A stretch of 64,000 nt of DNA from Escherichia coli (GCF_050320075.1 NZ_CP190018.1); one strand, 5' to 3'. Shown: positions 3,802-49,502, counted from the first letter of the stretch. Notes: generated from the letters alone by a model not told the origin. Translations and numbers: made by a program.

Positions 3802-4749
3802 ATGAAGATATTTATTAGTTGGTCAGGTCAGGACAGCCTGGAGATAGCAAAAGTATTACGGGATTGGATACCGAATGTTATTCAAGTAGCTGAGCCGTAC
3901 GTATCAGCGGAAGATATTGATAAAGGCACTCGCTGGGCGACTGATATATCAAAGGAACTTGATGACTCTTCTTATGGGATTATTTGCCTTACAAAAAATA
4001 ATATTAATGCACCGTGGATAAATTTTGAGGCGGGTGCTTTAGGTAAAAAGGTTGATAAGAGCCGGGTTAGTCCTTTCTTGTTTAAAATTAAACCATCTGA
4101 GATAACAGGCCCAATATTACAATTCCAGTATACTCGTTCGGATGATAAGAACGATATTTTGAAGTTGATGTTGTCAATAAATAATCAAGCAGGATTTTTG
4201 ACTGAAGAACGCTTAACTAAAGCTTTCGAGCAATGGTGGCCAAGTTTAGAGCGTGAGTTAGATAACATTCAAGATATTAACCCTGTAGATAAAGATTCCA
4301 CTAAAAAAACAAAAGGTGATTCGACTTCTGAGATACAAAATCTTTCCAAAATTGTTGAAAGTTTGCTGGATATTAGCCGAACAAATCACCAATTATTGCG
4401 TGATCCAGCATCATTATTGCCAGAAGAATATGTTAGCAAAATAATAAACAGGGAAGGGCGTAAAGAAACTGTTTTAAAAATTGTAGCTTCTGATTTATTA
4501 TCCATGCATCATTCACTAATTCGTGTAAAAAGAAGATTTATTCGCCGTGGTATTGATGAAACATCTAGGAGCGAGTTAATTGAATCATTAAATAAAATGA
4601 TAATGGATTGTTCTAGAGTAATCGCTCACTTAGATAATTATTGTGGGGCTTCATCAAACAATATGTTCAATAGTGCGCTTAGATTGCGGACCAGAAATTT
4701 AATTGACATGATGGATGAGGAGGATGCAGAACGGGATGAAATGGAATAA
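3802..4749 (+). CDS. TIR-like domain protein, 315 aa: N-terminal TIR-like fold (~130 aa) plus helical C-terminal domain of unknown function (cargo, candidate defence protein)
   Basis: N-terminus MKIFISWSGQDS...GIICLT...APWINFEAGAL matches the bacterial TIR/TIR-like signature (FISYS-type strand 1, conserved W..E.G motif) by eye; no HMM search run. Confidence 0.65.
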   Translation: MKIFISWSGQDSLEIAKVLRDWIPNVIQVAEPYVSAEDIDKGTRWATDISKELDDSSYGIICLTKNNINAPWINFEAGALGKKVDKSRVSPFLFKIKPSEITGPILQFQYTRSDDKNDILKLMLSINNQAGFLTEERLTKAFEQWWPSLERELDNIQDINPVDKDSTKKTKGDSTSEIQNLSKIVESLLDISRTNHQLLRDPASLLPEEYVSKIINREGRKETVLKIVASDLLSMHHSLIRVKRRFIRRGIDETSRSELIESLNKMIMDCSRVIAHLDNYCGASSNNMFNSALRLRTRNLIDMMDEEDAERDEME

Positions 4750-4797
4750 TCAATTTTGACTAATCATAAATAATTTTGCATATATAAACTTATAATG

Positions 4798-4830
4798 CCG
4801 CAGCCGCTATTTTTCAGCGGCTGTATATCG
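4798..4830 (+). terminator. Putative terminator downstream of the TIR-like gene
   Basis: cagccgct-atttttc-agcggctg stem-loop followed by a short T-containing tract; weaker than the other terminators. Confidence 0.35.
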
Positions 4831-5293
4831 CTTATAATGGGTATGTTATTTTTATTTTGATAAAATCATTAAAATTGTCGATGTTATATGAATGCACATG
4901 TATTATTAATGTTAGAAGATTATGCCTGCTTACGGCTATTGTGCTGAATTCAACTATGAACGCATCAGTATTAAAATCGTTCCATGAAATGTTCTTCGTC
5001 TACAGCAGATGATGGGCAACGAAAAAATGACGCTGAGTGAGTTGGTCGGGGAGAATTGTTAGAGGTATTTATGGAGTGGTTTAATAATATCGGTCAATCC
5101 TGAGTTGCAGCATCACATAGACGATAGGGAATCTCTCCAGTCGTTCTGGAATGGCAGCGTTGAACAACAAGCACAGCGAGGCGTTAGATGCCCATCAGAT
5201 TGACACAGAGGGTTTATGAATCGCTGGGATTTACTTAGTTTGAAAAATAATATATTTATATGTTTTTGTATTGTGTTTGTTAAGGAGTTTGGA

Positions 5294-5500
5294 TTGAAAA
5301 GAAAACTGATTTGTGTTATGGCTTTTTGGGGGGCGTTGCTGGCTGGTTGTAATGAGAGTAATAAAAAAGAAGTTGAGGGTTGTATTGAAAGAGGTGTCCA
5401 ATATTTTATAGAGATTGGTTCTTACCCTAAATTAAGTGATGGGCGTGATGCTGTGAAAGTTGCTACTGAACGTTGTAATAGAACAATAACGGCTTTCTGA
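5294..5500 (+). CDS. Small putative lipoprotein (about 68 aa precursor), signal peptide with lipobox LAGC (cargo)
   Basis: In-frame TTG at 5294 with TAAGGAG RBS 7 nt upstream gives MKRKLICVMAFWGALLAGC; the track starts at 5216 and an ATG lies at 5318; stop overlaps next start (TGATAATG). Confidence 0.45.
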   Translation: MKRKLICVMAFWGALLAGCNESNKKEVEGCIERGVQYFIEIGSYPKLSDGRDAVKVATERCNRTITAF

Positions 5501-5502
5501 TA

Positions 5503-6420
5503 ATGGATTATACGAGCTATATAATAGGACAGCTTCAGGTTGAGGATATTATTGATGCAATTAAAGGCGTTAATAATACTAATGTCATAAAAGATTATGT
5601 GCTGCCTGTAGTATTACCAATTATATCTTCTGTGCTGAGTTACTTTATTGCAACTAGGTTGTTTTATCGGCAGGAGTACCTTAAAGCACAAAGAAGAAAG
5701 GTAAGCGTTGTAAATAAATGTATTTATGACTACTTTTCTGCAATGACAACGTTGTTGCAAATTAAAGGGAATTATTATGGTGGGGTAAGTATAAGTGAAA
5801 ATCCTATCGAGAGGGCTTTAGCTTTTCCTGTTGTGGTTTTTTCTGGTGCTCCTCTATCATCAGATTTAAGTGAGTTGGCCTGTATATTGAGTCAAAAGGG
5901 AGTAGGGAATAATAGAGAGCCAGCAAAGACTACTAACTGGGGGGATGCTTTTGCTGTTAGTGATATAGCAAGAAGGTTTAACAGCCTATTGGCTGCATTA
6001 AATGTTAGGAATGATTTTGATGACACCTATAGAGGAATGATTATTGAATCAACAGGTTCACCTTTGCCTACGATGCGTTTTAAAAATGATGATATTGTTA
6101 ATGCTATAGGTAGTAATAAGGCAGCTTATTACATTGATATTACTGAGCAAATAATGATTATGATAGATGTTTTGTTGCTTGATATTAATCTGTTGCTCAA
6201 AGAGTTGCCATTGTATGCTGAATCGCTGTTTGACAAAAGAGTAATGCAAGAAGATTCAGGGATTCTTAAATTCAATGATTTGCACGAACGTTTTCCTCTA
6301 CTTATGAAACCTGTAACGCCACCTTCGATTAAACTCATGTCTGATTATTTGGGGTACAGTGAAGATGAGATCTTACGACGCTATCCATACCCGTTCTTTA
6401 ATATGCATGATTGTGAATGA
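5503..6420 (+). CDS. Hypothetical protein, 305 aa, single N-proximal TM helix, no domain recognised (cargo)
   Basis: ORF track; translationally coupled to the upstream lipoprotein ORF; hydrophobic segment VLPVVLPIISSVLSYFIATRLFY; strongly AT-rich. Confidence 0.65.
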   Translation: MDYTSYIIGQLQVEDIIDAIKGVNNTNVIKDYVLPVVLPIISSVLSYFIATRLFYRQEYLKAQRRKVSVVNKCIYDYFSAMTTLLQIKGNYYGGVSISENPIERALAFPVVVFSGAPLSSDLSELACILSQKGVGNNREPAKTTNWGDAFAVSDIARRFNSLLAALNVRNDFDDTYRGMIIESTGSPLPTMRFKNDDIVNAIGSNKAAYYIDITEQIMIMIDVLLLDINLLLKELPLYAESLFDKRVMQEDSGILKFNDLHERFPLLMKPVTPPSIKLMSDYLGYSEDEILRRYPYPFFNMHDCE

Positions 6421-6524
6421 ATGTGCATATGTCAGAAGCCGTTTTTATTGTCAGTTATCGTCAGTGCTGGCGCGCTCTTGGAGTGTTCATGCAACTGCAT
6501 TAAAACCGCCCCACGAAGCGGGCG

Positions 6525-6543
6525 GGCGAGGCGGGGAAAGCAC
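6525..6543. other. cos: Phage cos site (19-nt P2-type cohesive end GGCGAGGCGGGGAAAGCAC)
   Basis: Exact 19-mer read in sequence, preceded by a GC hairpin, located between the cargo island and portal gene as in P2. Confidence 0.7.
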
Positions 6544-6713
6544 TGCGCGCTGGCGGTGGTGATGATTTTATTTTTTCAGCGTCTGAGCGCGTCGTGATGG
6601 CGTTTAGATTGTGCGCCGGGGCGTTGGTGTGTCTGCGGGGTGTTTTGTACAGTGGCGAGCGTGTGAGGGCGTGATGACGGGGGTGTAAAAAAGCCGCCCG
6701 CAGGCGGCGATGT

Positions 6714-7748
6714 TCAGCCGTTGTCAGTGTCCAGTGAGTAGTTTTTAAAGCGGATGACCTCCTGACCGAGCCAGCCGTTTATTTCCCGAATCCTGTCCTG
6801 TAACGGGATAAGCTCATTGCGGACAAAGACCTTTGCCACTTTCTCAATATCGCCCAGTGACCCGACGTTCTCCGGCTTGCCGCCCATCAACTGAAAGGGG
6901 ATGCGGTGCGCGTCCAGCAGGTCAGCGGCGCTGGCTTTTTTGATATTAAAAAAATCGTCCTTCGTTGCCACTTCACTGAGCGGGATAATTTTAATGCCGT
7001 CGGCTTTCCCCTGTGGGGCATAGAGAAACAGATTTTTAAAGTTATTGCGGCCTTTCGACTTCACCATGTTTTCGCGAAGCATTTCGATATCGTTGCGATC
7101 CTGCACGGCATCGGTGACGTACATGATGTATCCGGCATGCGCGCCGTTTTCGTAATACTTGCGGCGGAACAGCGTGGCCGACTCATTCAGCCAGGCAGAG
7201 TTAAGGGCGCTGAGATATTCCGGCAGGCCGTACAGCTCCTGATTAATATCCGGCTCCAGCAGGTGAAACACGGAGCCGGGCGCGAAAGGTGTCGGCTCGT
7301 TGAAGGACGGCACCCACCAGTAAACATCCTCCTCAACACCACGGCGGGTATATTTTGCCGGTGAGGTTTCCAGTCTGATGACCTTACCGGTGGTGCTGTA
7401 GCGCTTTTCCAGAAACGCATTACCGAACACCAGAAAATCCAGCACAAAGCGGCTGAAATCCTGCTGGGAAAGCCACGGGTGCGGAATAAACGTTGAAGCC
7501 AGAATATTACGTTTGACGTAAATCGGTGAGCTGTGATGTACGGCAGCACGCAGGCTTTTTGCCAGACCGGTAAAGCTGACCGGTGGCTCATACCATCTGC
7601 CGTTACTGATGCACTCGACGTAATCCAGAATGTCACGGCGGTCGAGTACCGGCACCGGCTCACCAAAGGTGAATGCCTCCATTTTCGGGGCGCTGGCGGT
7701 CATTGTTTTTGCCGCAGGTTGCGGTGTTTTCCCTTTTTTCTTGCTCAT
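6714..7748 (-). CDS. Q: Portal protein (P2 gpQ-like)
   Basis: 344 aa, same length and position as P2 Q; start overlaps stop of terminase gene by 1 nt. Confidence 0.9.
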   Translation of the reverse strand: MSKKKGKTPQPAAKTMTASAPKMEAFTFGEPVPVLDRRDILDYVECISNGRWYEPPVSFTGLAKSLRAAVHHSSPIYVKRNILASTFIPHPWLSQQDFSRFVLDFLVFGNAFLEKRYSTTGKVIRLETSPAKYTRRGVEEDVYWWVPSFNEPTPFAPGSVFHLLEPDINQELYGLPEYLSALNSAWLNESATLFRRKYYENGAHAGYIMYVTDAVQDRNDIEMLRENMVKSKGRNNFKNLFLYAPQGKADGIKIIPLSEVATKDDFFNIKKASAADLLDAHRIPFQLMGGKPENVGSLGDIEKVAKVFVRNELIPLQDRIREINGWLGQEVIRFKNYSLDTDNG

Positions 7749-9520
7749 CAGTAAAACTCCAGAATGGTGGATGTCAGCGGGGTGCTGATACCGGCGGTGA
7801 GTGGCTCATTTAACAGGGCGTGCATGGTTGCCCAGGCGAGGTCGGCGTGGCTGGCTTCCTCGCTGCGGCTGGCCTCATAGGTGGCGCTGCGTCCGCTGCT
7901 GGTTATGGTCTTGCGGATAGCCATAAACGAGCTGGTGATGTCGGTGGCGCTGACGTCATATTCCAGACAGCCACGGCGGATGACGTCTTTTGCCTTGAGC
8001 ACCATTGCGGTTTTCATTTCCGGCGTGTAGCGGATGTCGCGCGCGGCGGGATAGAACGAGCGCACGAGCTGGAACACGCCGACACCGAGGCCGGTGGCAT
8101 CAATACCGATGTATTCGACGTTGTATTTTTCGGTGAGTTTGCGGATGGATTCCGCCTGAGTGGCAAAGTCCATGCCTTTCCACTGGTGACGCTCAAGTAT
8201 TCTGAATTTGCCACCGGCCACCACCGGCGGTGCCAGTACCACGCATCCGGCGCTGTCGCCACGGTGTGACGGGTCGTAACCAATCCATACCGGACGTGAG
8301 CCGAACGGATTGGCGGCAAACGGCGCATAGTCTTCCCATTCTTCCAGCGTGTCGACCATGCAGCGTTGCAGCTCCTCAAACGGGAACACCGATGCCTTGT
8401 CGTCAACAAATTCACACATGAACAGGTTTTTAAAATCGTCGGCGCTGTTTTCGCGTTTGAGCTGCTCAATGTCGAACAATGTGCAGCCGCCTTTCAGGGC
8501 GTCCTCAATGGTGACAATCTGCCGCCACTGGCCGTCCGCACAGAGAAGACCACCGGCAAGGGCGTTATGACTGACGTCGATTTCCACACGTTCGGCGGCG
8601 CTGGCGCGTCCCCGGTTGAACAGTTCACCCGACCAGAACGGGTAGGCGTCGTGCGCCAGCGTGGACGGGGTGGAGAAATAGGTCGAGCGCAGGTGACTCT
8701 GTGAGGCCATACCTGATGCCACCTTACGCAGTACCTGAAAATTCGGGATCCAGAAAATCTCGTCGACGTACAGGTCGCCGTTATGGCTCTGTGCGGTGTT
8801 GGAGTTGGTGCCGAGAAAAATCAGTTTTGCGCCGTTATTGCCCAGGACAATCGGGTCACCGGTCAGGTCAACGTCAACCAGCCGGGCAAAGGCGATGATG
8901 TATTCGCGGAACACATACGCCTGCGTTTTACTGGCCGACAGAAAAATCTGGTTATGACCGGTTTTCAGGGCGCGCAGCAGCGCCTCGCGGGAAAAATAAA
9001 ACGTCGCGCCAATCTGGCGGGATTTCAGGATATCGCGGATGCGGTGCTCAAGCCCGGCGCGATACCAGTGCAACTGATAGTCGAAAGACTGCTCAAAGAA
9101 AATCTGCTCCAGCTTTTCGATGGCCTCGTCACTGAAAAAATTCTTTTTCGGTTTGCGACGCCCGCCTTTGTTGCGGTTAGCAACGTTCGGATTAAGGTCT
9201 GCCTCGTTGCCGGTCTGACTGTAGCGGTTGACCCGCGCCAGTCGTTCAATCTGGCGTCCGAGCAGGTCAATTTCCTTGAAGTCACCGCCGGTTTTCTGCG
9301 GTTTTATGATGAGCTGGGTCAGCCGCGCTTCCAGACTCATTTCGACACGGCTGATGGGGGCAACGCTGTCCCAGCCGTCGCGCTGTTTCCAGCTCTGCAC
9401 CGTCGGGCGTTTCATCTGCAACATGGCGGCAATCTGCGGCACGGAAAACCCCTGCCAGTACAGCTGCGCCGCCTGACGACGCGGGTCGTGTAAAAGAGTG
9501 GTGTCTGTGGTGATGGTCAT
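7748..9520 (-). CDS. P: Terminase large subunit (P2 gpP-like)
   Basis: 590 aa from ATG at 9520 with GAGGT RBS (track ORF starts 30 nt further upstream); divergent from the O-N-M operon as in P2. Confidence 0.9.
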   Translation of the reverse strand: MTITTDTTLLHDPRRQAAQLYWQGFSVPQIAAMLQMKRPTVQSWKQRDGWDSVAPISRVEMSLEARLTQLIIKPQKTGGDFKEIDLLGRQIERLARVNRYSQTGNEADLNPNVANRNKGGRRKPKKNFFSDEAIEKLEQIFFEQSFDYQLHWYRAGLEHRIRDILKSRQIGATFYFSREALLRALKTGHNQIFLSASKTQAYVFREYIIAFARLVDVDLTGDPIVLGNNGAKLIFLGTNSNTAQSHNGDLYVDEIFWIPNFQVLRKVASGMASQSHLRSTYFSTPSTLAHDAYPFWSGELFNRGRASAAERVEIDVSHNALAGGLLCADGQWRQIVTIEDALKGGCTLFDIEQLKRENSADDFKNLFMCEFVDDKASVFPFEELQRCMVDTLEEWEDYAPFAANPFGSRPVWIGYDPSHRGDSAGCVVLAPPVVAGGKFRILERHQWKGMDFATQAESIRKLTEKYNVEYIGIDATGLGVGVFQLVRSFYPAARDIRYTPEMKTAMVLKAKDVIRRGCLEYDVSATDITSSFMAIRKTITSSGRSATYEASRSEEASHADLAWATMHALLNEPLTAGISTPLTSTILEFY

Positions 9521-9693
9521 GAATACCTCGCCGTGATGAATACACGGCAAGGCTACTGAGTCGCGCCCCGCGATTCGCTAAGGTGCTGTTGTGTCAGTGA
9601 TAAGCCATCCGGGACTGATGGCGGAGGATGCGCATCGTCGGGAAACTGATGCCGACATGTGACTCCTCTAATCACTATTCAGGACTCCTGACA

Positions 9694-10548
9694 ATGGCAA
9701 AAAAAGTCTCAAAATTCTTTCGTATCGGCGTTGAGGGTGACACCTGTGACGGGCGTGTCATCAGTGCGCAGGATATTCAGGAAATGGCCGAAACCTTTGA
9801 CCCGCGTGTCTATGGTTGCCGCATTAACCTGGAACATCTGCGCGGCATCCTGCCTGACGGTATTTTTAAGCGTTATGGCGATGTGGCCGAACTGAAGGCC
9901 GAAAAGATTGACGATGATTCGGCGCTGAAAGGCAAATGGGCGCTGTTTGCGAAAATCACCCCGACCGATGACCTTATCGCGATGAACAAGGCCGCGCAGA
10001 AGGTCTATACCTCAATGGAAATTCAGCCGAACTTTGCCAATACAGGCAAATGTTATCTGGTGGGGCTGGCCGTCACCGATGACCCGGCAAGCCTCGGCAC
10101 GGAATACCTGGAATTCTGCCGCACGGCAAAACACAACCCCCTGAACCGCTTCAAATTAAGCCCTGAAAACCTGATTTCAGTGGCAACGCCTGTTGAGCTG
10201 GAATTTGAAGACCTGCCTGAAACCGTGTTCACCGCCCTGACCGAAAAGGTGAAATCCATTTTTGGCCGCAAACAGGCCAGCGATGACGCCCGTCTGAATG
10301 ACGTGCATGAAGCGGTGACCGCTGTTGCTGAACATGTGCAGGAAAAACTGAGCGCCACTGAGCAGCGCCTCGCTGAGATGGAAACCGCCTTTTCTGCACT
10401 TAAGCAGGAGGTGACTGACAGGGCGGATGAAACCAGCCAGGCATTCACCCGCCTGAAAAACAGTCTCGACCACACCGAAAGTCTGACCCAGCAGCGCCGC
10501 AGCAAGGCCACCGGCGGTGGCGGTGACGCACTGATGACGAACTGCTGA
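9694..10548 (+). CDS. O: Capsid scaffolding protein (P2 gpO-like)
   Basis: About 284 aa from internal ATG (MAKKVSKFFRIGVEG...); position between P and N. Confidence 0.85.
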   Translation: MAKKVSKFFRIGVEGDTCDGRVISAQDIQEMAETFDPRVYGCRINLEHLRGILPDGIFKRYGDVAELKAEKIDDDSALKGKWALFAKITPTDDLIAMNKAAQKVYTSMEIQPNFANTGKCYLVGLAVTDDPASLGTEYLEFCRTAKHNPLNRFKLSPENLISVATPVELEFEDLPETVFTALTEKVKSIFGRKQASDDARLNDVHEAVTAVAEHVQEKLSATEQRLAEMETAFSALKQEVTDRADETSQAFTRLKNSLDHTESLTQQRRSKATGGGGDALMTNC

Positions 10549-10609
10549 CCGGAGGCGTCAGTCAGTCCGGGAAAACCTTCACGATTAACTCTTTATTTCA
10601 GGAAAAACT

Positions 10610-11683
10610 ATGCGCCAGGAAACCCGCTTTAAATTTAATGCCTACCTGTCCCGTGTTGCCGAGCTGAACGGCATCGACGCCGGTGATGTGTCGAAAAAAT
10701 TCACCGTTGAACCGTCGGTCACCCAGACCCTGATGAACACCATGCAGGAGTCCTCTGACTTTCTGACCCGCATCAACATTGTGCCGGTCAGCGAAATGAA
10801 AGGGGAAAAAATTGGTATCGGTGTCACCGGCTCCATCGCCAGCACCACCGACACCGCCGGTGGCACCGAGCGTCAGCCGAAGGACTTCTCGAAGCTGGCG
10901 TCTAACAAGTACGAATGCGACCAGATTAACTTCGATTTTTATATCCGCTACAAAACGCTGGACCTGTGGGCGCGTTATCAGGATTTCCAGCTCCGTATCC
11001 GTAACGCCATTATCAAACGCCAGTCCCTTGATTTCATCATGGCCGGTTTTAACGGCGTGAAGCGTGCAGAAACCTCTGACCGCAACAGTAATCCGATGTT
11101 GCAGGATGTGGCGGTCGGCTGGCTGCAGAAATACCGCAATGAAGCCCCGGCGCGTGTGATGAGCAAGGTCACTGACGAGGAAGGTCACACGAACTCTGAG
11201 GTCATCCGCGTGGGTAAGGGCGGTGATTATGCCAGCCTTGATGCACTGGTGATGGATGCGACCAACAACCTGATTGAACCGTGGTATCAGGAAGACCCTG
11301 ACCTTGTGGTGATTGTGGGGCGTCAGCTACTGGCGGACAAGTATTTCCCCATCGTTAACAAGGAGCAGGACAACAGCGAAATGCTGGCCGCTGACGTCAT
11401 CATCAGCCAGAAACGCATCGGTAACCTGCCGGCGGTACGCGTCCCGTACTTCCCGGCGGATGCGATGCTCATCACGAAGCTGGAAAACCTGTCCATCTAC
11501 TACATGGATGACAGCCATCGCCGCGTGATTGTGGAAAACCCGAAACTCGACCGCGTGGAGAACTACGAGTCAATGAACATTGATTACGTGGTGGAAGACT
11601 ACGCCGCCGGTTGTCTGGTGGAAAAAATTAAGGTCGGTGATTTCTCCACACCGGCTAAGGCGACCGCAGAGCCGGGAGCGTAA
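10610..11683 (+). CDS. N: Major capsid protein (P2 gpN-like)
   Basis: 357 aa, P2 N size and position. Confidence 0.9.
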   Translation: MRQETRFKFNAYLSRVAELNGIDAGDVSKKFTVEPSVTQTLMNTMQESSDFLTRINIVPVSEMKGEKIGIGVTGSIASTTDTAGGTERQPKDFSKLASNKYECDQINFDFYIRYKTLDLWARYQDFQLRIRNAIIKRQSLDFIMAGFNGVKRAETSDRNSNPMLQDVAVGWLQKYRNEAPARVMSKVTDEEGHTNSEVIRVGKGGDYASLDALVMDATNNLIEPWYQEDPDLVVIVGRQLLADKYFPIVNKEQDNSEMLAADVIISQKRIGNLPAVRVPYFPADAMLITKLENLSIYYMDDSHRRVIVENPKLDRVENYESMNIDYVVEDYAAGCLVEKIKVGDFSTPAKATAEPGA

Positions 11684-44109: not shown

Positions 44110-44260
44110 TTCAGCGGGACGCTGAAACGGGAAAGCCCCTCCCGAGGAAGGGGCCTTAAATAAGGAAAGGGTCATGATGAAGCTACTCATCATCGTGGTG
44201 CTCTTAGTCATAAGCTTCCCCGCTTACTAAGACTACCAGGGCGGGGGAAACCCCGCTCTA
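44110..44260 (-). ncRNA. sibB: Sib antisense sRNA antitoxin overlapping ibsB (approximate ends)
   Basis: Known Ibs/Sib type I toxin-antitoxin arrangement; hairpin plus U-tract on minus strand upstream of the ibs start; ends not determined. Confidence 0.45.
44174..44230 (+). CDS. ibsB: Type I toxin Ibs (18 aa hydrophobic peptide MMKLLIIVVLLVISFPAY)
   Basis: Peptide read directly; one of two tandem homologous ~240-bp units between mdtA and yegL. Confidence 0.75.
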   Translation: MMKLLIIVVLLVISFPAY

Positions 44261-44439: not shown

Positions 44440-44595
44440 CAGCGGGACGCTAAAACGGGGAACCCTCTCCCGGAGAAGAGGGCTTTTAAATAAGGAAAGG
44501 GTTATGATGAAGCACGTCATCATACTGGTGATACTCTTAGTGATTAGCTTCCAGGCTTACTAAGAACACCAGGGGGAGGGGGAAACCTCTCCCTA
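44440..44595 (-). ncRNA. sibA: Sib antisense sRNA antitoxin overlapping ibsA (approximate ends)
   Basis: As for sibB. Confidence 0.45.
44504..44563 (+). CDS. ibsA: Type I toxin Ibs (19 aa MMKHVIILVILLVISFQAY)
   Basis: Peptide read directly; second tandem unit. Confidence 0.75.
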   Translation: MMKHVIILVILLVISFQAY

Positions 44596-44783: not shown

Positions 44784-45443
44784 ATGAGCGAACAAATCAC
44801 GTTTGCCACCAGCGATTTTGCCAGTAACCCGGAACCACGTTGCCCCTGCATTTTGCTGCTGGATGTTTCTGGTTCGATGAACGGTAGACCCATTAATGAA
44901 CTTAACGCCGGATTGATTACCTTTCGCGATGAGCTGCTTGCCGACCCGCTGGCCTTAAAAAGAGTGGAACTTGGTATTGTGACGTTCGGCCCGGTGCATG
45001 TGGAACAACCCTTTACCAGCGCCGCTAATTTTTTCCCGCCCATCCTGTTTGCCCAGGGCGATACACCAATGGGTGCCGCCATTACCAAAGCCCTGGATAT
45101 GGTAGAGGAGCGGAAACGTGAGTATCGTGCAAATGGTATTTCGTATTATCGCCCGTGGATTTTCCTGATCACCGATGGCGCTCCAACCGATGAGTGGCAG
45201 GCTGCCGCCAACAAAGTGTTTCAGGGGGAAGAAGATAAGAAGTTTGCCTTCTTTTCCATCGGTGTTCAGGGGGCGGATATGAAGACGCTGGCCCAAATCA
45301 GCGTCCGTCAGCCTTTGTCTCTGCAGGGATTACAATTCCGCGAACTGTTTAGCTGGTTATCCAGTTCACTGCGTTCGGTTTCCCGCTCCACGCCGGGAAC
45401 GGAAGTTGTGCTGGAAGCGCCAAAAGGCTGGACGTCAGTGTGA
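44784..45443 (+). CDS. yegL: von Willebrand factor A domain protein YegL
   Basis: 219 aa with MIDAS-type motif LLLDVSGSM; synteny. Confidence 0.85.
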
Positions 45444-46201
45444 GCTGGCGTCTGGTTTATGCATCCGCTGTTGGAACGTCGCACATTAGCGCTGATTTAC
45501 CTTGTCAGGATGCCTGCCAGATGCAGGTTGCCTGGCTAAATGACCAGCAGCCATTACTGGTGATGTTCCTTGCTGATGGCGCAGGTAGCGTTTCGCAGGG
45601 AGGAGAAGGCGCGAAGCTCGCCGTCAATGAAGCGATGGCGTTTATGGTGCAAAAAGTACAGGACGGTGAATTGGGGCTTAATGATGTCCTCGCCACAAAT
45701 ATGGTACTGACCATTCGTCAACGACTTTTTGCCGAGGCAGAAGCCAAAGCATTAGCAGTTCGCGATTTTGCCTGCACGTTTCTGGGATTGATTTCATCGG
45801 CTAACGGCACATTGATTATGCAAATTGGCGACGGCGGTGTAGTGGTGGATTTTGGTCGTGGTCTGGAACTGCCGCTCACGCCGATGGTGGGTGAATATGC
45901 CAATATGACGCATTTCATTAGCGATGAAGATGCTGTTTCCAGACTGGAAACTTTCACCAGCACTGAGCGTGCGCATAAAGTTGCAGCATTTACGGATGGT
46001 ATTCAGCGACTGGCGTTAAATATGCTGGATAATTCTCCGCATGTGCCTTTCTTTACCCCGTTTTTCAATGGACTGGCGGCAGCAACGCAGGAACAACTCG
46101 ATTTATTACCTGAATTGTTAAAGCAGTTTTTGTCGAGCCCGGCGGTAAACGAGCGTACCGATGATGATAAAACGTTGGCACTGGCGCTGTGGTTACCATG
46201 A
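45440..46201 (+). CDS. pphC: PP2C-type protein phosphatase YegK (PphC)
   Basis: 253 aa, synteny; start overlaps yegL stop. Confidence 0.8.
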
Positions 46202-48138
46202 AACCCACTTTATATACTGCTACTGGTGAGTGCGTTACGCCAGGCCGTGAACTGGGCAAAGGTGGTGAAGGCGCGGTTTATGATATCGAGGAGTTTGTCG
46301 ATAGCGTCGCCAAGATTTATCACACGCCGCCACCCGCCTTAAAACAGGACAAACTTGCCTTTATGGCTGCGACAGCTGACGCGCAGTTGTTGAATTATGT
46401 CGCCTGGCCGCAGGCAACGCTTCACGGTGGACGAGGCGGAAAAGTTATCGGTTTTATGATGCCAAAAGTTTCTGGTAAAGAACCGATTCATATGATCTAT
46501 AGCCCGGCACATCGTCGCCAGAGTTACCCTCATTGTGCGTGGGATTTTCTACTCTATGTTGCGCGCAATATTGCTTCATCTTTTGCTACGGTTCACGAGC
46601 ACGGGCACGTCGTGGGTGACGTAAACCAGAACAGTTTTATGGTAGGTCGCGACAGCAAAGTGGTACTGATTGATAGCGACTCCTTTCAGATTAACGCCAA
46701 TGGCACACTGCATTTATGCGAAGTCGGCGTGTCGCATTTTACGCCGCCAGAGCTACAAACCTTGTCGTCATTTGTCGGCTTTGAACGCACAGAAAATCAC
46801 GATAATTTTGGCCTTGCGTTGCTGATTTTTCACGTCTTGTTTGGTGGCCGGCATCCTTATTCTGGTGTGCCGCTTATCTCTGATGCGGGTAATGCGCTGG
46901 AGACGGATATTACCCATTTCCGTTATGCCTACGCGTCAGATAATCAGCGACGTGGTTTAAAACCGCCGCCACGATCGATTCCGCTATCGATGTTACCGAG
47001 TGATGTTGAAGCCATGTTTCAGCAGGCATTCACGGAAAGTGGCGTGGCAACCGGGCGTCCGACGGCTAAAGCGTGGGTAGCGGCACTTGATTCTCTGCGC
47101 CAACAGTTAAAGAAATGTCCCGTTTCGGCAATGCATGTTTATCCCGCTCATTTGACCGACTGCCCGTGGTGTGCGCTGGATAATCAAGGCGTTATCTATT
47201 TTATTGATCTCGGCGAAGAGGTCATTACCACCAGCGGTGATTTTGTGCTGGCGAAAGTCTGGGCGATGGTGATGGCGTCAGTAGCACCGCCAGCATTGCA
47301 ATTGCCATTACCCGATCATTTCCAACCGACTGGCAGGCCGCTTCCTTTAGGCCTGTTACGGCGCGAATACATCATTCTGATTGAGATCGCACTGTCAGCG
47401 TTATCGCTGTTGCTTTGCGGCCTTCAGGCAGAACCGCGTTATATTATTTTGGTTCCTGTGCTGTCGGCTATCTGGATTATTGGCAGTCTGACAAGCAAAG
47501 CGTACAAAGCAGAAGTTCAGCAACGCCGTGAGGCATTTAATCGCGCGAAAATGGACTATGACCATTTATTCAGCCAGATCCAACAGTTGGGCGGGCTGGA
47601 AGGTTTTATCGCCAAACGGACGATGCTCGAAAAAATGAAGGACGAAATGCTCGGGTTACCGGAAGAAGAAAAACGTGCTCTGGCAGCACTTCACGACACC
47701 GCAAGGGAACGGCAGAAGCAGAAGTTTCTGGAGGGATTTTTTATTGATGTTGCCTCTATTCCCGGCGTTGGCCCTGCGCGTAAAGCGGCGTTACGGTCCT
47801 TTGGTATTGAAACAGCAGCGGATGTTACCCGTCGTGGGGTTAAGCAAGTGAAAGGGTTTGGTGATCATCTGACCCAGGCAGTTATCGACTGGAAAGCAAG
47901 TTGCGAACGCCGTTTTGTGTTCAGGCCGAATGAAGCGGTAACGCCAGCAGACAGACAAGCGGTAATGGCGAAAATGACCGCCAAACGACATCGGCTGGAA
48001 TCGACGTTGACTGTCGGCGCGACAGAGTTGCAGCGATTCCGCCTTCATGCTCCAGCACGGACCATGCCGTTGATGGAACCGTTACGTCAGGCGGCAGAAA
48101 AACTGGCTCAGGCGCAGGCTGATTTAAGCCGCTGCTGA
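46189..48138 (+). CDS. yegI: Ser/Thr protein kinase-like protein YegI
   Basis: 649 aa, kinase-like N-terminal domain, C-terminal TM and helical region; overlaps yegK stop by 13 nt. Confidence 0.8.
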   Translation: MVTMKPTLYTATGECVTPGRELGKGGEGAVYDIEEFVDSVAKIYHTPPPALKQDKLAFMAATADAQLLNYVAWPQATLHGGRGGKVIGFMMPKVSGKEPIHMIYSPAHRRQSYPHCAWDFLLYVARNIASSFATVHEHGHVVGDVNQNSFMVGRDSKVVLIDSDSFQINANGTLHLCEVGVSHFTPPELQTLSSFVGFERTENHDNFGLALLIFHVLFGGRHPYSGVPLISDAGNALETDITHFRYAYASDNQRRGLKPPPRSIPLSMLPSDVEAMFQQAFTESGVATGRPTAKAWVAALDSLRQQLKKCPVSAMHVYPAHLTDCPWCALDNQGVIYFIDLGEEVITTSGDFVLAKVWAMVMASVAPPALQLPLPDHFQPTGRPLPLGLLRREYIILIEIALSALSLLLCGLQAEPRYIILVPVLSAIWIIGSLTSKAYKAEVQQRREAFNRAKMDYDHLFSQIQQLGGLEGFIAKRTMLEKMKDEMLGLPEEEKRALAALHDTARERQKQKFLEGFFIDVASIPGVGPARKAALRSFGIETAADVTRRGVKQVKGFGDHLTQAVIDWKASCERRFVFRPNEAVTPADRQAVMAKMTAKRHRLESTLTVGATELQRFRLHAPARTMPLMEPLRQAAEKLAQAQADLSRC

Positions 48139-48149
48139 GCCATTTTCTT

Positions 48150-49502
48150 TTAACGAAATACCACTTCTGCCCAGCGTGCCAGCCCGGCGGTGACGGAGCC
48201 AAAGTCATCGCCGCCTGCAATCGGAATGCCCGGCAACTGTTCTGCCAGCGCTTTTTTAATCAGCGGCGAACGGGCGCTACCGCCGGTCAGGTAGATAACG
48301 TCCGGTTTTTCCTGGGCGTTATCCAGCGCCAGTTGCACCTGTTCCAGAATCCGCGCCAGTGGCTGGCTGAGGGCGCTTTCCAGCCCTTGCTGGCTAATCA
48401 GCGTAGCCAGTTCATCGCTGATAAACGGCAGTGAGGCGCGGGTTTCCGCAGTGCTTGAAAGGGCGATTTTGCTCTCTTCTGCGCTACGCACCAGGCGATA
48501 GCTTAAACGCTGACGCCAGACTTTCTGTAACAGGGCCACTTTTTCCGGTTCGCGGGCATCGCGTACCAGATCGTTAAGCAGACGACCGTTGGCACTACTG
48601 TAGAAATCACTCTGTGCAGGAACGTCGTTGATGGCAACCGCATTCCACCACGGCAGAATCGGCAGGGCGATGCCTTTTTCGGTTTCGCCACCCATGCCCA
48701 GTAACGGCATCAGGTTTTTAAACGCCAGCGCGATATCCAGATCGTTACCGCCAATACGGCAACCACTGTGACCCAGCAGGCTGGCTTCACGATCGAGACG
48801 CGAACGCCACTGCGGCCCCATCAGCAGCAATGAACAGTCAGTCGTACCACCGCCGATATCCACCACCAGCACCCGTTTTTCTTCCTGCAAGGTGGCTTCG
48901 TAATCCAGCCCAGCCGCGACCGGCTCGTACTGGAATACCACGTCCCTGAATCCGGCACGCTTCGCCGCGCGTTCCAGAATCCCTTGCGCCTGGGTGTTTG
49001 CTTCATCACCGCCCAGCCCCTGGAAGTTGATCGGACGACCAATCACCGCCTGAGTAATCGCTTCTGGCAGTTGTGCCTGCGCCTGCTGGCGAATGTGCAA
49101 CATCATTGCGCAGACCAGATCCTCAAACAGCGCTACCTGCTGCGGTTTTAAGCCGCTGGCACCGAGGAACGATTTTGGTGATTTCACAAACCACACTTCT
49201 TCTGGATCATCAATGTACTGTGCCAGTGAGGAAAGACCGAACTGCACGCTTTTCGCCGTAACATCGATATCTTCTTCGCGGTTATAACGAATCGCCCGAC
49301 GTAACAGCGCCTGCGTTTCATCGTCGTCTGCCGGAACATCATGATGGCGGTACAGCCATTCGCTTACCGCTTCACGCGTTGGCGCGCAAAGCATTGAAGG
49401 CAGCAGCGTGCTGTCGTTTTCCATTTTTAGCAAATGCGGTTTACCGTCACGCATGACCGCCACTGAACAGTTTGCTGTACCGTAATCAAAACCAATAAAC
49501 AC
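48150..49502 (-). CDS. yegD: Hsp70-family ATPase-like protein YegD
   Basis: 450 aa from GTG (MFIGFDYGTANCSVAV...), actin-fold/Hsp70 motifs; track ORF over-extended. Confidence 0.8.
   Translation of the reverse strand: MFIGFDYGTANCSVAVMRDGKPHLLKMENDSTLLPSMLCAPTREAVSEWLYRHHDVPADDDETQALLRRAIRYNREEDIDVTAKSVQFGLSSLAQYIDDPEEVWFVKSPKSFLGASGLKPQQVALFEDLVCAMMLHIRQQAQAQLPEAITQAVIGRPINFQGLGGDEANTQAQGILERAAKRAGFRDVVFQYEPVAAGLDYEATLQEEKRVLVVDIGGGTTDCSLLLMGPQWRSRLDREASLLGHSGCRIGGNDLDIALAFKNLMPLLGMGGETEKGIALPILPWWNAVAINDVPAQSDFYSSANGRLLNDLVRDAREPEKVALLQKVWRQRLSYRLVRSAEESKIALSSTAETRASLPFISDELATLISQQGLESALSQPLARILEQVQLALDNAQEKPDVIYLTGGSARSPLIKKALAEQLPGIPIAGGDDFGSVTAGLARWAEVVFR

Follow-up and report, generated by a model that had tools for sequence, protein, structure and literature searches.

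The 64,000-nucleotide stretch of Escherichia coli DNA analysed here (GCF_050320075.1, NZ_CP190018.1; referred to below as the window) carries, between positions 44,784 and 49,502, three co-directional genes, yegL, pphC (yegK) and yegI, which face yegD on the opposite strand. They encode a von Willebrand A (VWA) protein, a PP2C phosphatase, a Ser/Thr kinase and an Hsp70-like ATPase, respectively. On balance, the region is best read as a horizontally acquired triad of TerY-P type lying beside an unrelated, ancestral yegD, the triad most likely acting as a conflict or stress switch for foreign or damaged DNA. If this is true, a defence-type module would reside within the core, and not the accessory, genome of E. 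coli.

All four genes are already known and annotated, and two of them have been characterised biochemically. The present comparison sharpens the question left by the papers of the Dworkin laboratory, that of the purpose of YegI and PphC: the functional unit consists of three genes, including that of the highly conserved YegL, and not of four; this unit is a portable cassette, found sometimes in defence islands and on conjugative plasmids; and the tail of YegI probably binds nucleic acid at the membrane.

Composition of the triad

The TerY-P triad of Anantharaman, Iyer and Aravind (2012) comprises, in the summary given in PMC11090510, a TerY-like VWA protein, a PP2C phosphatase and a kinase with a C-terminal zinc ribbon, and the same summary describes it, by prediction, as a phosphorylation switch that senses metal and is connected with DNA-processing or restriction systems. 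The same three components are contiguous and co-directional in yegL-pphC-yegI (Table 1), which in composition has a TerY-P-type architecture. The original prediction had proposed the limits of the region, which coincide exactly with those of the open reading frames (ORFs), and the names and domain types of the four genes, which agree with the RefSeq annotation and, except for the kinase, with the Pfam matches. It had also placed yegL, pphC and yegI in one operon; for the strain of the window this is supported, the yegL stop and the pphC start sharing four nucleotides (GTGA), like the pphC stop and the yegI start (ATGA), so that the cassette is regarded as translationally coupled. The ORF positions, overlaps, domains and stop spacing are far beyond chance.

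Table 1. Genes of the locus and segments of YegI, with their positions in the window (aa, amino acids)
Feature	Position	Strand	Description
yegL	44784-45443	+	219 aa; ORF listing and translation; product a cytoplasmic TerY-like von Willebrand A protein
pphC/yegK	45440-46201	+	253 aa, GTG start; ORF listing and translation
yegI	46198-48138	+	646 aa; ORF listing and translation
yegD	48150-49502	-	450 aa, GTG start; convergent on the triad
YegI kinase domain, aa 1-300	46198-47097	+	GGEG, VAK39, G-D141-x-N143 loop, D159-S-D161-S162-F-Q
YegI putative zinc knuckle, aa ~304-328	47107-47181	+	C307-x5-H313-x8-C322-P-W-C325
YegI transmembrane hairpin, aa ~384-433	47347-47496	+	hydrophobic model helices 384-408 and 418-430
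YegI cytoplasmic coiled-coil segment, aa ~434-511	47497-47730	+	~80 residues
YegI probable (HhH)2 module, aa ~513-571	47734-47910	+	two h-x-G-h-G hairpins, IPGVGPARKAAL and VKGFGDHLTQAV
YegI C-terminal long helix, aa 583-645	47944-48132	+	single 63-residue helix in both predicted models

YegL matches the Pfam VWA family (7e-10) and, like the TerY-like protein of the triad, has a MIDAS motif, here complete and with conserved residues (D27-x-S29-x-S31, T94 and D131); its C-terminal tail, F-x-W-L-S, is conserved as well. In BLASTP searches it is 32% identical over 181 residues (E 1e-27) to TerY1 of an IncHI2 plasmid that carries the ter (tellurite-resistance) operon, and tblastn with YegL reveals three TerY paralogues on approximately 2,300 ter plasmids. 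The adjoining PP2C-like phosphatase is supplied by PphC (Pfam PP2C_2, 1e-47). The PP2C encoded after the terY genes of ter plasmids is 24% identical to it (E 2e-5) and has in common with it a C-terminal DD(K/R)T-A-LW motif. A comparison of YegI with the ter-cluster kinase meets insertion sequence (IS) elements, which interrupt the stretch following the PP2C gene in both plasmids inspected. PphC has been characterised by Rajagopalan and Dworkin as an atypical PP2C-like, Mn-dependent phosphatase which removes phosphate from YegI.

The third component, YegI, was shown by the same authors to be an active Mn/Mg-dependent Ser/Thr kinase which lacks the HRD/DFG consensus and autophosphorylates serines of its DSDS loop. 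Their PhoA-LacZ topology analysis shows that it crosses the inner membrane twice and has both its ends in the cytoplasm, and they have published mutational data on residues of the kinase motifs. An AlphaFold2 model computed from 124 homologues (pLDDT 94.1, pTM 0.82, confident throughout) predicts the bilobal fold of a Hanks kinase, with catalytic Lys and Asp: Foldseek matches residues 1-300 to the kinase domains of PknB, Aurora and Src (E approximately 1e-7, TM to target 0.65-0.73). The motif residues are invariant or nearly so among 124 family members, K39, D141 and D159 being invariant. The canonical features of this kinase class are absent: VGDxNQxS and DSDSFQ occur in place of HRD and DFG, and a search of YegI against Pfam gives no Pkinase match at E<0.01. 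The PknB-PstP and PrkC-PrpC pairs resemble YegI and PphC in the Hanks fold and in the dephosphorylation of the kinase by a PP2C from the same operon. YegI differs from those kinases in these replacements (VGD for HRD, DSD for DFG), in the missing Pkinase match and in having no extracellular PASTA or other sensor domain; the triad, moreover, has an obligatory VWA partner.

Immediately after the kinase domain, residues C307, H313, C322 and C325 are invariant in 124 of 124 sequences. At this position the model has a short β hairpin followed by a helix (strands 304-306 and 314-316, helix 323-329), and the resulting CHCC knuckle presumably binds metal. In its fold and in this motif, with zinc binding as a prediction, YegI corresponds to the zinc-ribbon kinase of the TerY-P triad. 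Beyond residue 330 the model is entirely helical, and here YegI departs from the triad as summarised: after the knuckle it continues into a membrane hairpin, then a coiled coil and probably a pair of helix-hairpin-helix motifs, (HhH)2.

Several observations bear on this last assignment. The Pfam HHH_5 profile scores 20-22 bits on E. coli YegI, under its 27-bit cut-off, and matches 15 of 33 members of the YegI family (best 8e-6). G523, G525, G553, F554 and G555 are invariant in a seven-sequence alignment, and G553 is the only one of the hairpin residues conserved in more than 90% of the 124 family members. Fold searches with the isolated tail are swamped by coiled-coil matches, and a profile of the C-terminal alignment run against PDB sequences matches the HhH stretch only at E approximately 0.1 (L32e and REV1). 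Since the HHH_5 score is below threshold in E. coli and the fold searches are swamped, the (HhH)2 DNA-binding domain is regarded as probable only. A YegI relative encoded by the Sphingobium plasmid pBSY17_2 (positions 6956-9115 of the locus) has an additional topoisomerase-type C4 zinc finger after the HhH region, at its C-terminus. Such a finger would be a second nucleic-acid-binding module, which fits a DNA-related role of the tail.

TerY-P is also the name of an anti-phage system validated by Gao et al. (2020) and described in PMC11090510 and PMC7699616 as a stand-alone cassette of VWA, PP2C and kinase genes that protects against T7-like phages. To this extent the association of VWA/kinase combinations with phage response, which the original prediction had pointed out, is justified through the TerY-P class. 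The E. coli cassette is alike in being a stand-alone set of the same three genes, and the two differ in the kinase, which in the system of Gao et al. ends in an OB fold. In the AlphaFold2 model, YegI has no C-terminal OB fold and is predicted to end in the knuckle, transmembrane hairpin, coiled coil, HhH region and long helix.

Distribution of the triad and the position of yegD

YegI belongs to a large family, with 9,705 clusters at 50% identity for E<=1e-3 and 3,246 for E<=1e-30, most members of which have the full architecture of 640-650 residues. Its relatives are scattered over Proteobacteria, Firmicutes, Actinobacteria, Cyanobacteria, Acidobacteria, Synergistetes, Verrucomicrobia and methanogenic archaea. 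The nearest ones outside Escherichia are found in Klebsiella spallanzanii (62% identity) and in the betaproteobacterium Piscinibacter (61%); Salmonella and Citrobacter yielded none.

When one genome per species was scanned, 80 loci with YegI relatives emerged, six of them in Escherichia. In each of the 70 full-length loci from other genera the VWA, PP2C and kinase genes abut, in the same order and on one strand. The lineages concerned include Burkholderiales, Pseudomonas, Paenibacillus, Bacillus, Frankia, cyanobacteria, Acidobacteria and Methanoregula. The median identity to the E. coli proteins in these loci is 65% for YegL, 40% for PphC and 39% for YegI; that a non-enzymatic VWA protein is better conserved than both enzymes is unexpected for a mere accessory adaptor.

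The triad is also present on 83 plasmid records, more than half of which are typed as conjugative. Nine are from E. coli and probably represent chromosomal sequence filed as plasmid, since four of them are 4.8-4.9 Mb long. The other 74 are genuine plasmids from outside Escherichia, for the most part conjugative, and include the Pseudomonas megaplasmid pQBR103 and many Agrobacterium and Rhizobium plasmids. In the window, the G+C content of the triad (0.48-0.53) is lower than that of most of yegD (0.57-0.58) and of the mdt genes (0.54-0.60), in keeping with a foreign origin. In Salmonella enterica and Citrobacter freundii the corresponding locus reads dgcE-alkA-yegD-ibs-mdtA-mdtB and has no triad; this triad-free order implies that the triad came to lie between yegD and ibs by insertion within the Escherichia lineage. 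The triad thus appears to have been acquired horizontally by the ancestor of Escherichia, as a mobile cassette.

The history of yegD is different. YegD matches NCBIfam PRK11678 (2e-244) and Pfam HSP70 (2.6e-24) and has an Hsp70 nucleotide-binding domain (NBD). Matches of the 450-residue protein to PDB entries are confined to the NBD, approximately residues 1-383 of DnaK, and the C-terminal substrate-binding domain and lid of Hsp70 are missing. Its identity to homologues follows an ordinary vertical pattern, with 90-91% in Citrobacter, 88-89% in Salmonella and 86-87% in other Enterobacteriaceae. YegD is an NBD-only Hsp70-like ATPase, ancestral in enterobacteria.

The original prediction had treated the four genes as one cluster, which would make YegD a functional partner, for example by serving the VWA protein as chaperone or as partner ATPase. 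yegD does adjoin the triad, and several observations could be taken to favour such a link. The convergent stop codons of yegI and yegD (48136-48152) are separated by an 11-nt gap with no terminator-like hairpin between them, so that the two transcripts must overlap; yegD and yegI form an overlapping-transcript 'excludon' pair in K-12 RNA-seq (PMC12288877), and overexpression of yegJ has been reported to raise yegD mRNA. However, when all ORFs of the 80 loci were searched by phmmer with the four window proteins, a YegD-like protein was detected in the six Escherichia loci only, and no YegD-like gene lay within 10 kb of the triad at any of approximately 75 loci outside Escherichia. Moreover, yegD is on the opposite strand, it occurs without the triad in Salmonella and Citrobacter, and its vertical descent at 86-91% identity contrasts with a triad that has no close relative outside Escherichia. 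Since yegD is inherited vertically and the triad occurs elsewhere without it, their adjacency is an accident of insertion. Membership of yegD in the module, as a fourth component, is rejected on the basis of the co-occurrence test and the triad-free yegD loci, and a functional cluster of four genes is most improbable.

State in E. coli and proposed role

The triad is a fixed feature of the E. coli chromosome: it is present in single copy, with at least 80% coverage, in 5,402 of 5,426 complete genomes (99.6%), and at the same fixed locus in other Escherichia species. The 5.7 kb around the four genes are 100% identical to the sequence of strain YZLc1-3 and of further E. coli chromosomes, whose RefSeq annotation gives the same four genes between ibsA/ibsB-mdtA and alkA-dgcE (the window is in reverse orientation with respect to the K-12 chromosome), and 98.4% identical to a derivative of E. 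coli B.

The window has an uninterrupted yegL-pphC-yegI block, with no yegJ (DUF2314) at the 46198 junction. In K-12, yegJ lies between pphC and yegI (positions 5987-6711 of the K-12 locus) and in the opposite orientation, an insertion noted by Rajagopalan and Dworkin and in a 2026 paper on the RNase E interactome. The yegJ segment occurs in 1,899-1,934 of the 5,426 complete genomes (approximately 35%), a distribution far beyond 'K strains only', and in some genomes it is accompanied by IS1. The uninterrupted operon is the majority form; it is also that of E. coli B, the source of the proteins used in the published biochemistry. The genes had originally been described as core K-12 genes and so not novel; they are indeed known, but the arrangement is not that of K-12, whose operon is split by yegJ. 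For this reason K-12 is the wrong strain in which to test the triad.

Such interruptions might suggest that the triad is a silent remnant of an ancient insertion, retained by chance, slowly decaying and now without function in E. coli. Apart from yegJ, the yegI gene is split into two ORFs in the representatives of two Escherichia species, MOD1-EC7003 (8671-10620 of its locus) and E1V33 (4500-6450), through a frameshift, a stop codon or an assembly error, and several shortened forms of YegI, from long contigs of E. coli, are present in the protein database. Moreover, no expression has been detected under laboratory conditions, and a promoter and terminator scan of the locus gave nothing beyond shuffled expectation, with no strong sigma-70 consensus upstream of the triad. 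Decay is contradicted by the three ORFs, which are intact in nearly all genomes, by the enzymatic activity of the recombinant proteins and by the dN/dS values obtained between distant phylogroups, in comparisons with a B2 strain and K-12 (yegL 0.05-0.08, pphC 0.13-0.15, yegI 0.17). Low dN/dS and near-universal intact ORFs indicate genes kept by selection and not decaying, and a relic is accordingly very unlikely. Within the block, pphC is the gene that diverges most between E. coli lineages (91% nucleotide identity, dS 0.29-0.30 against 0.05-0.17 for its neighbours). The pattern points to recombination or to two old classes of allele, and the unequal PphC activity published for B and K strains may be connected with it.

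Since the operon belongs to the core genome of E. coli and is fixed there, the strongest competing explanation is a domesticated housekeeping pathway of Escherichia, concerned with DNA damage, stationary phase or envelope stress, in which YegI would phosphorylate endogenous proteins and the triad would have no role against phages or plasmids. Besides its single locus, its near-universal presence and the purifying selection acting on it, this is favoured by the weak stationary-phase expression of yegI and the recurrence of yegI mutations in the long-term evolution experiment, both reported by Rajagopalan and Dworkin, and by the housekeeping genes that flank some related triads. In addition, in a published overexpression screen YegL and YegI were each among the proteins that raise endogenous DNA damage, which is compatible with action on or near DNA; since MdtA and MdtB likewise scored, this result is not specific to the triad. 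Against a pathway peculiar to Escherichia, the patchy spread of the triad across domains and its carriage by plasmids argue for a portable, host-independent function, the closest genera lack the triad, and some of its relatives lie among strong defence neighbours. A housekeeping role is therefore considered unlikely, although by no means negligible.

These neighbours were surveyed by comparing 125 ORFs around triads from 15 genera with Pfam and PADLOC, which yields family counts and not an enrichment statistic. No Pfam or PADLOC family occurs more than twice, and the absence of a recurrent flanking family indicates that the triad has no conserved fourth partner. Strong PADLOC matches among these ORFs include Avs2, PifA, McrBC and DruM. 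In some genomes the surroundings are evidently a defence island or a mobile element: the Piscinibacter triad is accompanied by an SLFN-type helicase, a MazG-like protein, ScoMcrA, SNase, BrxR and JetABC; that of K. spallanzanii is near GmrSD, SymE and a type I restriction-modification system; and that of Chromobacterium adjoins AbiH and a KAP NTPase within a Tn7-like element. The association of the triad with defence is suggestive.

A conflict or stress switch, the reading favoured here, could operate as follows. Autophosphorylation of YegI and removal of the phosphates by PphC, both known from the literature, together provide an on/off switch. The tail of YegI, with its zinc knuckle, coiled coil and probable (HhH)2, would place a nucleic-acid-binding module at the membrane. 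YegL would be a metal-dependent sensor or adaptor whose MIDAS site detects a ligand, or forms a bridge to it, and so controls the kinase. As the triad has no conserved fourth gene beside it, YegI itself is likely to be the output, phosphorylating proteins of the cell or of an invader. The triad would in this way respond to foreign or damaged DNA in the manner of TerY-P anti-phage systems, a link to DNA that draws on the HHH_5 matches in the YegI family and on the DNA-damage screen mentioned above, and in E. coli it would be a fixed, almost silent chromosomal resident.

Two other systems can be likened to the triad by their descriptions. In KKP, encoded by Pf prophages (PMC11341870), a PP2C-type phosphatase restrains Ser/Thr kinase activity and a role in phage defence is reported; unlike the triad, KKP has two kinases and no VWA protein and is prophage-encoded. 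The DRA0331-0334 operon of Deinococcus radiodurans (bioRxiv 10.64898/2026.01.23.701218) likewise combines a VWA protein, a transmembrane Ser/Thr kinase and a PP2C, in a context of DNA damage. It differs from the triad in having four genes, one for an FHA protein, in another order and with a phosphatase-FHA fusion.

Several points weigh against a conflict system. A fixed, single-copy and near-universal chromosomal locus is unusual for a defence system. Unlike the TerY-P triad as summarised, that of E. coli has no link to ter genes, to McrBC/CoCoNuT or to other DNA-processing genes: its neighbours are ibs, mdtA and yegD, the ter or restriction link being seen in some relatives and not in others. 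Several triads are in housekeeping contexts (with SecB, LptFG and others; loci L096 and L098), and the association with defence islands, seen in approximately half of the inspected loci, was counted without a background control. The TerY-P models of PADLOC-DB 2.0 recognise none of the three proteins: the TerY model scores YegL at only E 0.0097 (13.5 bits), and PphC and YegI are unmatched. The role proposed for YegL is pure inference. Rajagopalan and Dworkin found no expression conditions, substrates or phenotype, and the literature searched has no report of a phage phenotype for yegLKI. The poorly understood function stressed in the original prediction is thus a fair description of published work on YegI and PphC, which offers biochemistry without a phenotype or a substrate.

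A bolder form of the same idea is rather doubtful. Here yegLKI would be a working innate-immunity module of a distinct and very large TerY-P subclass (approximately 3,200 50%-identity clusters at E<=1e-30), in which the cytoplasmic zinc-knuckle and (HhH)2 tail of the membrane-anchored YegI would detect DNA crossing the inner membrane during phage injection or conjugation, YegL would gate the kinase and PphC would reset it. As part of this doubtful proposal, the module would have been overlooked for three reasons: its silence under laboratory conditions, the yegJ insertion that divides it in K-12, and its absence from current defence HMM sets.

Prophage and ibs genes in the window

A P2-like prophage occupies the window from position 1 to approximately 30755, where PHROGs matches identify a gpA-like nicking protein, portal, large terminase, major head, tail sheath, tape measure and tail protein D. 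Strain YZLc1-3, which is otherwise identical, lacks this prophage, and the two sequences part at approximately 30755, just upstream of yegQ. Its earlier description as adjacent to the four genes was loose, the prophage ending at approximately 30.75 kb, 14 kb and nine genes from yegL. It was rejected as a relevant neighbour of the triad. One of two adjoining prophage ORFs, of 305 residues (5503-6420), has no PADLOC match. The other, of 315 residues (3802-4749, + strand), lies between the replication and portal genes and matches PADLOC 'TIR-TM' (2.3e-118); from this match it is likely to be a defence gene of a prophage hotspot.

Between mdtA and yegL, the window carries two Ibs type I toxin genes, an ibsB-like gene (44174-44230, + strand) and ibsA (44504-44563, + strand). 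The equivalent site in Salmonella and Citrobacter has one ibs gene, immediately after yegD.

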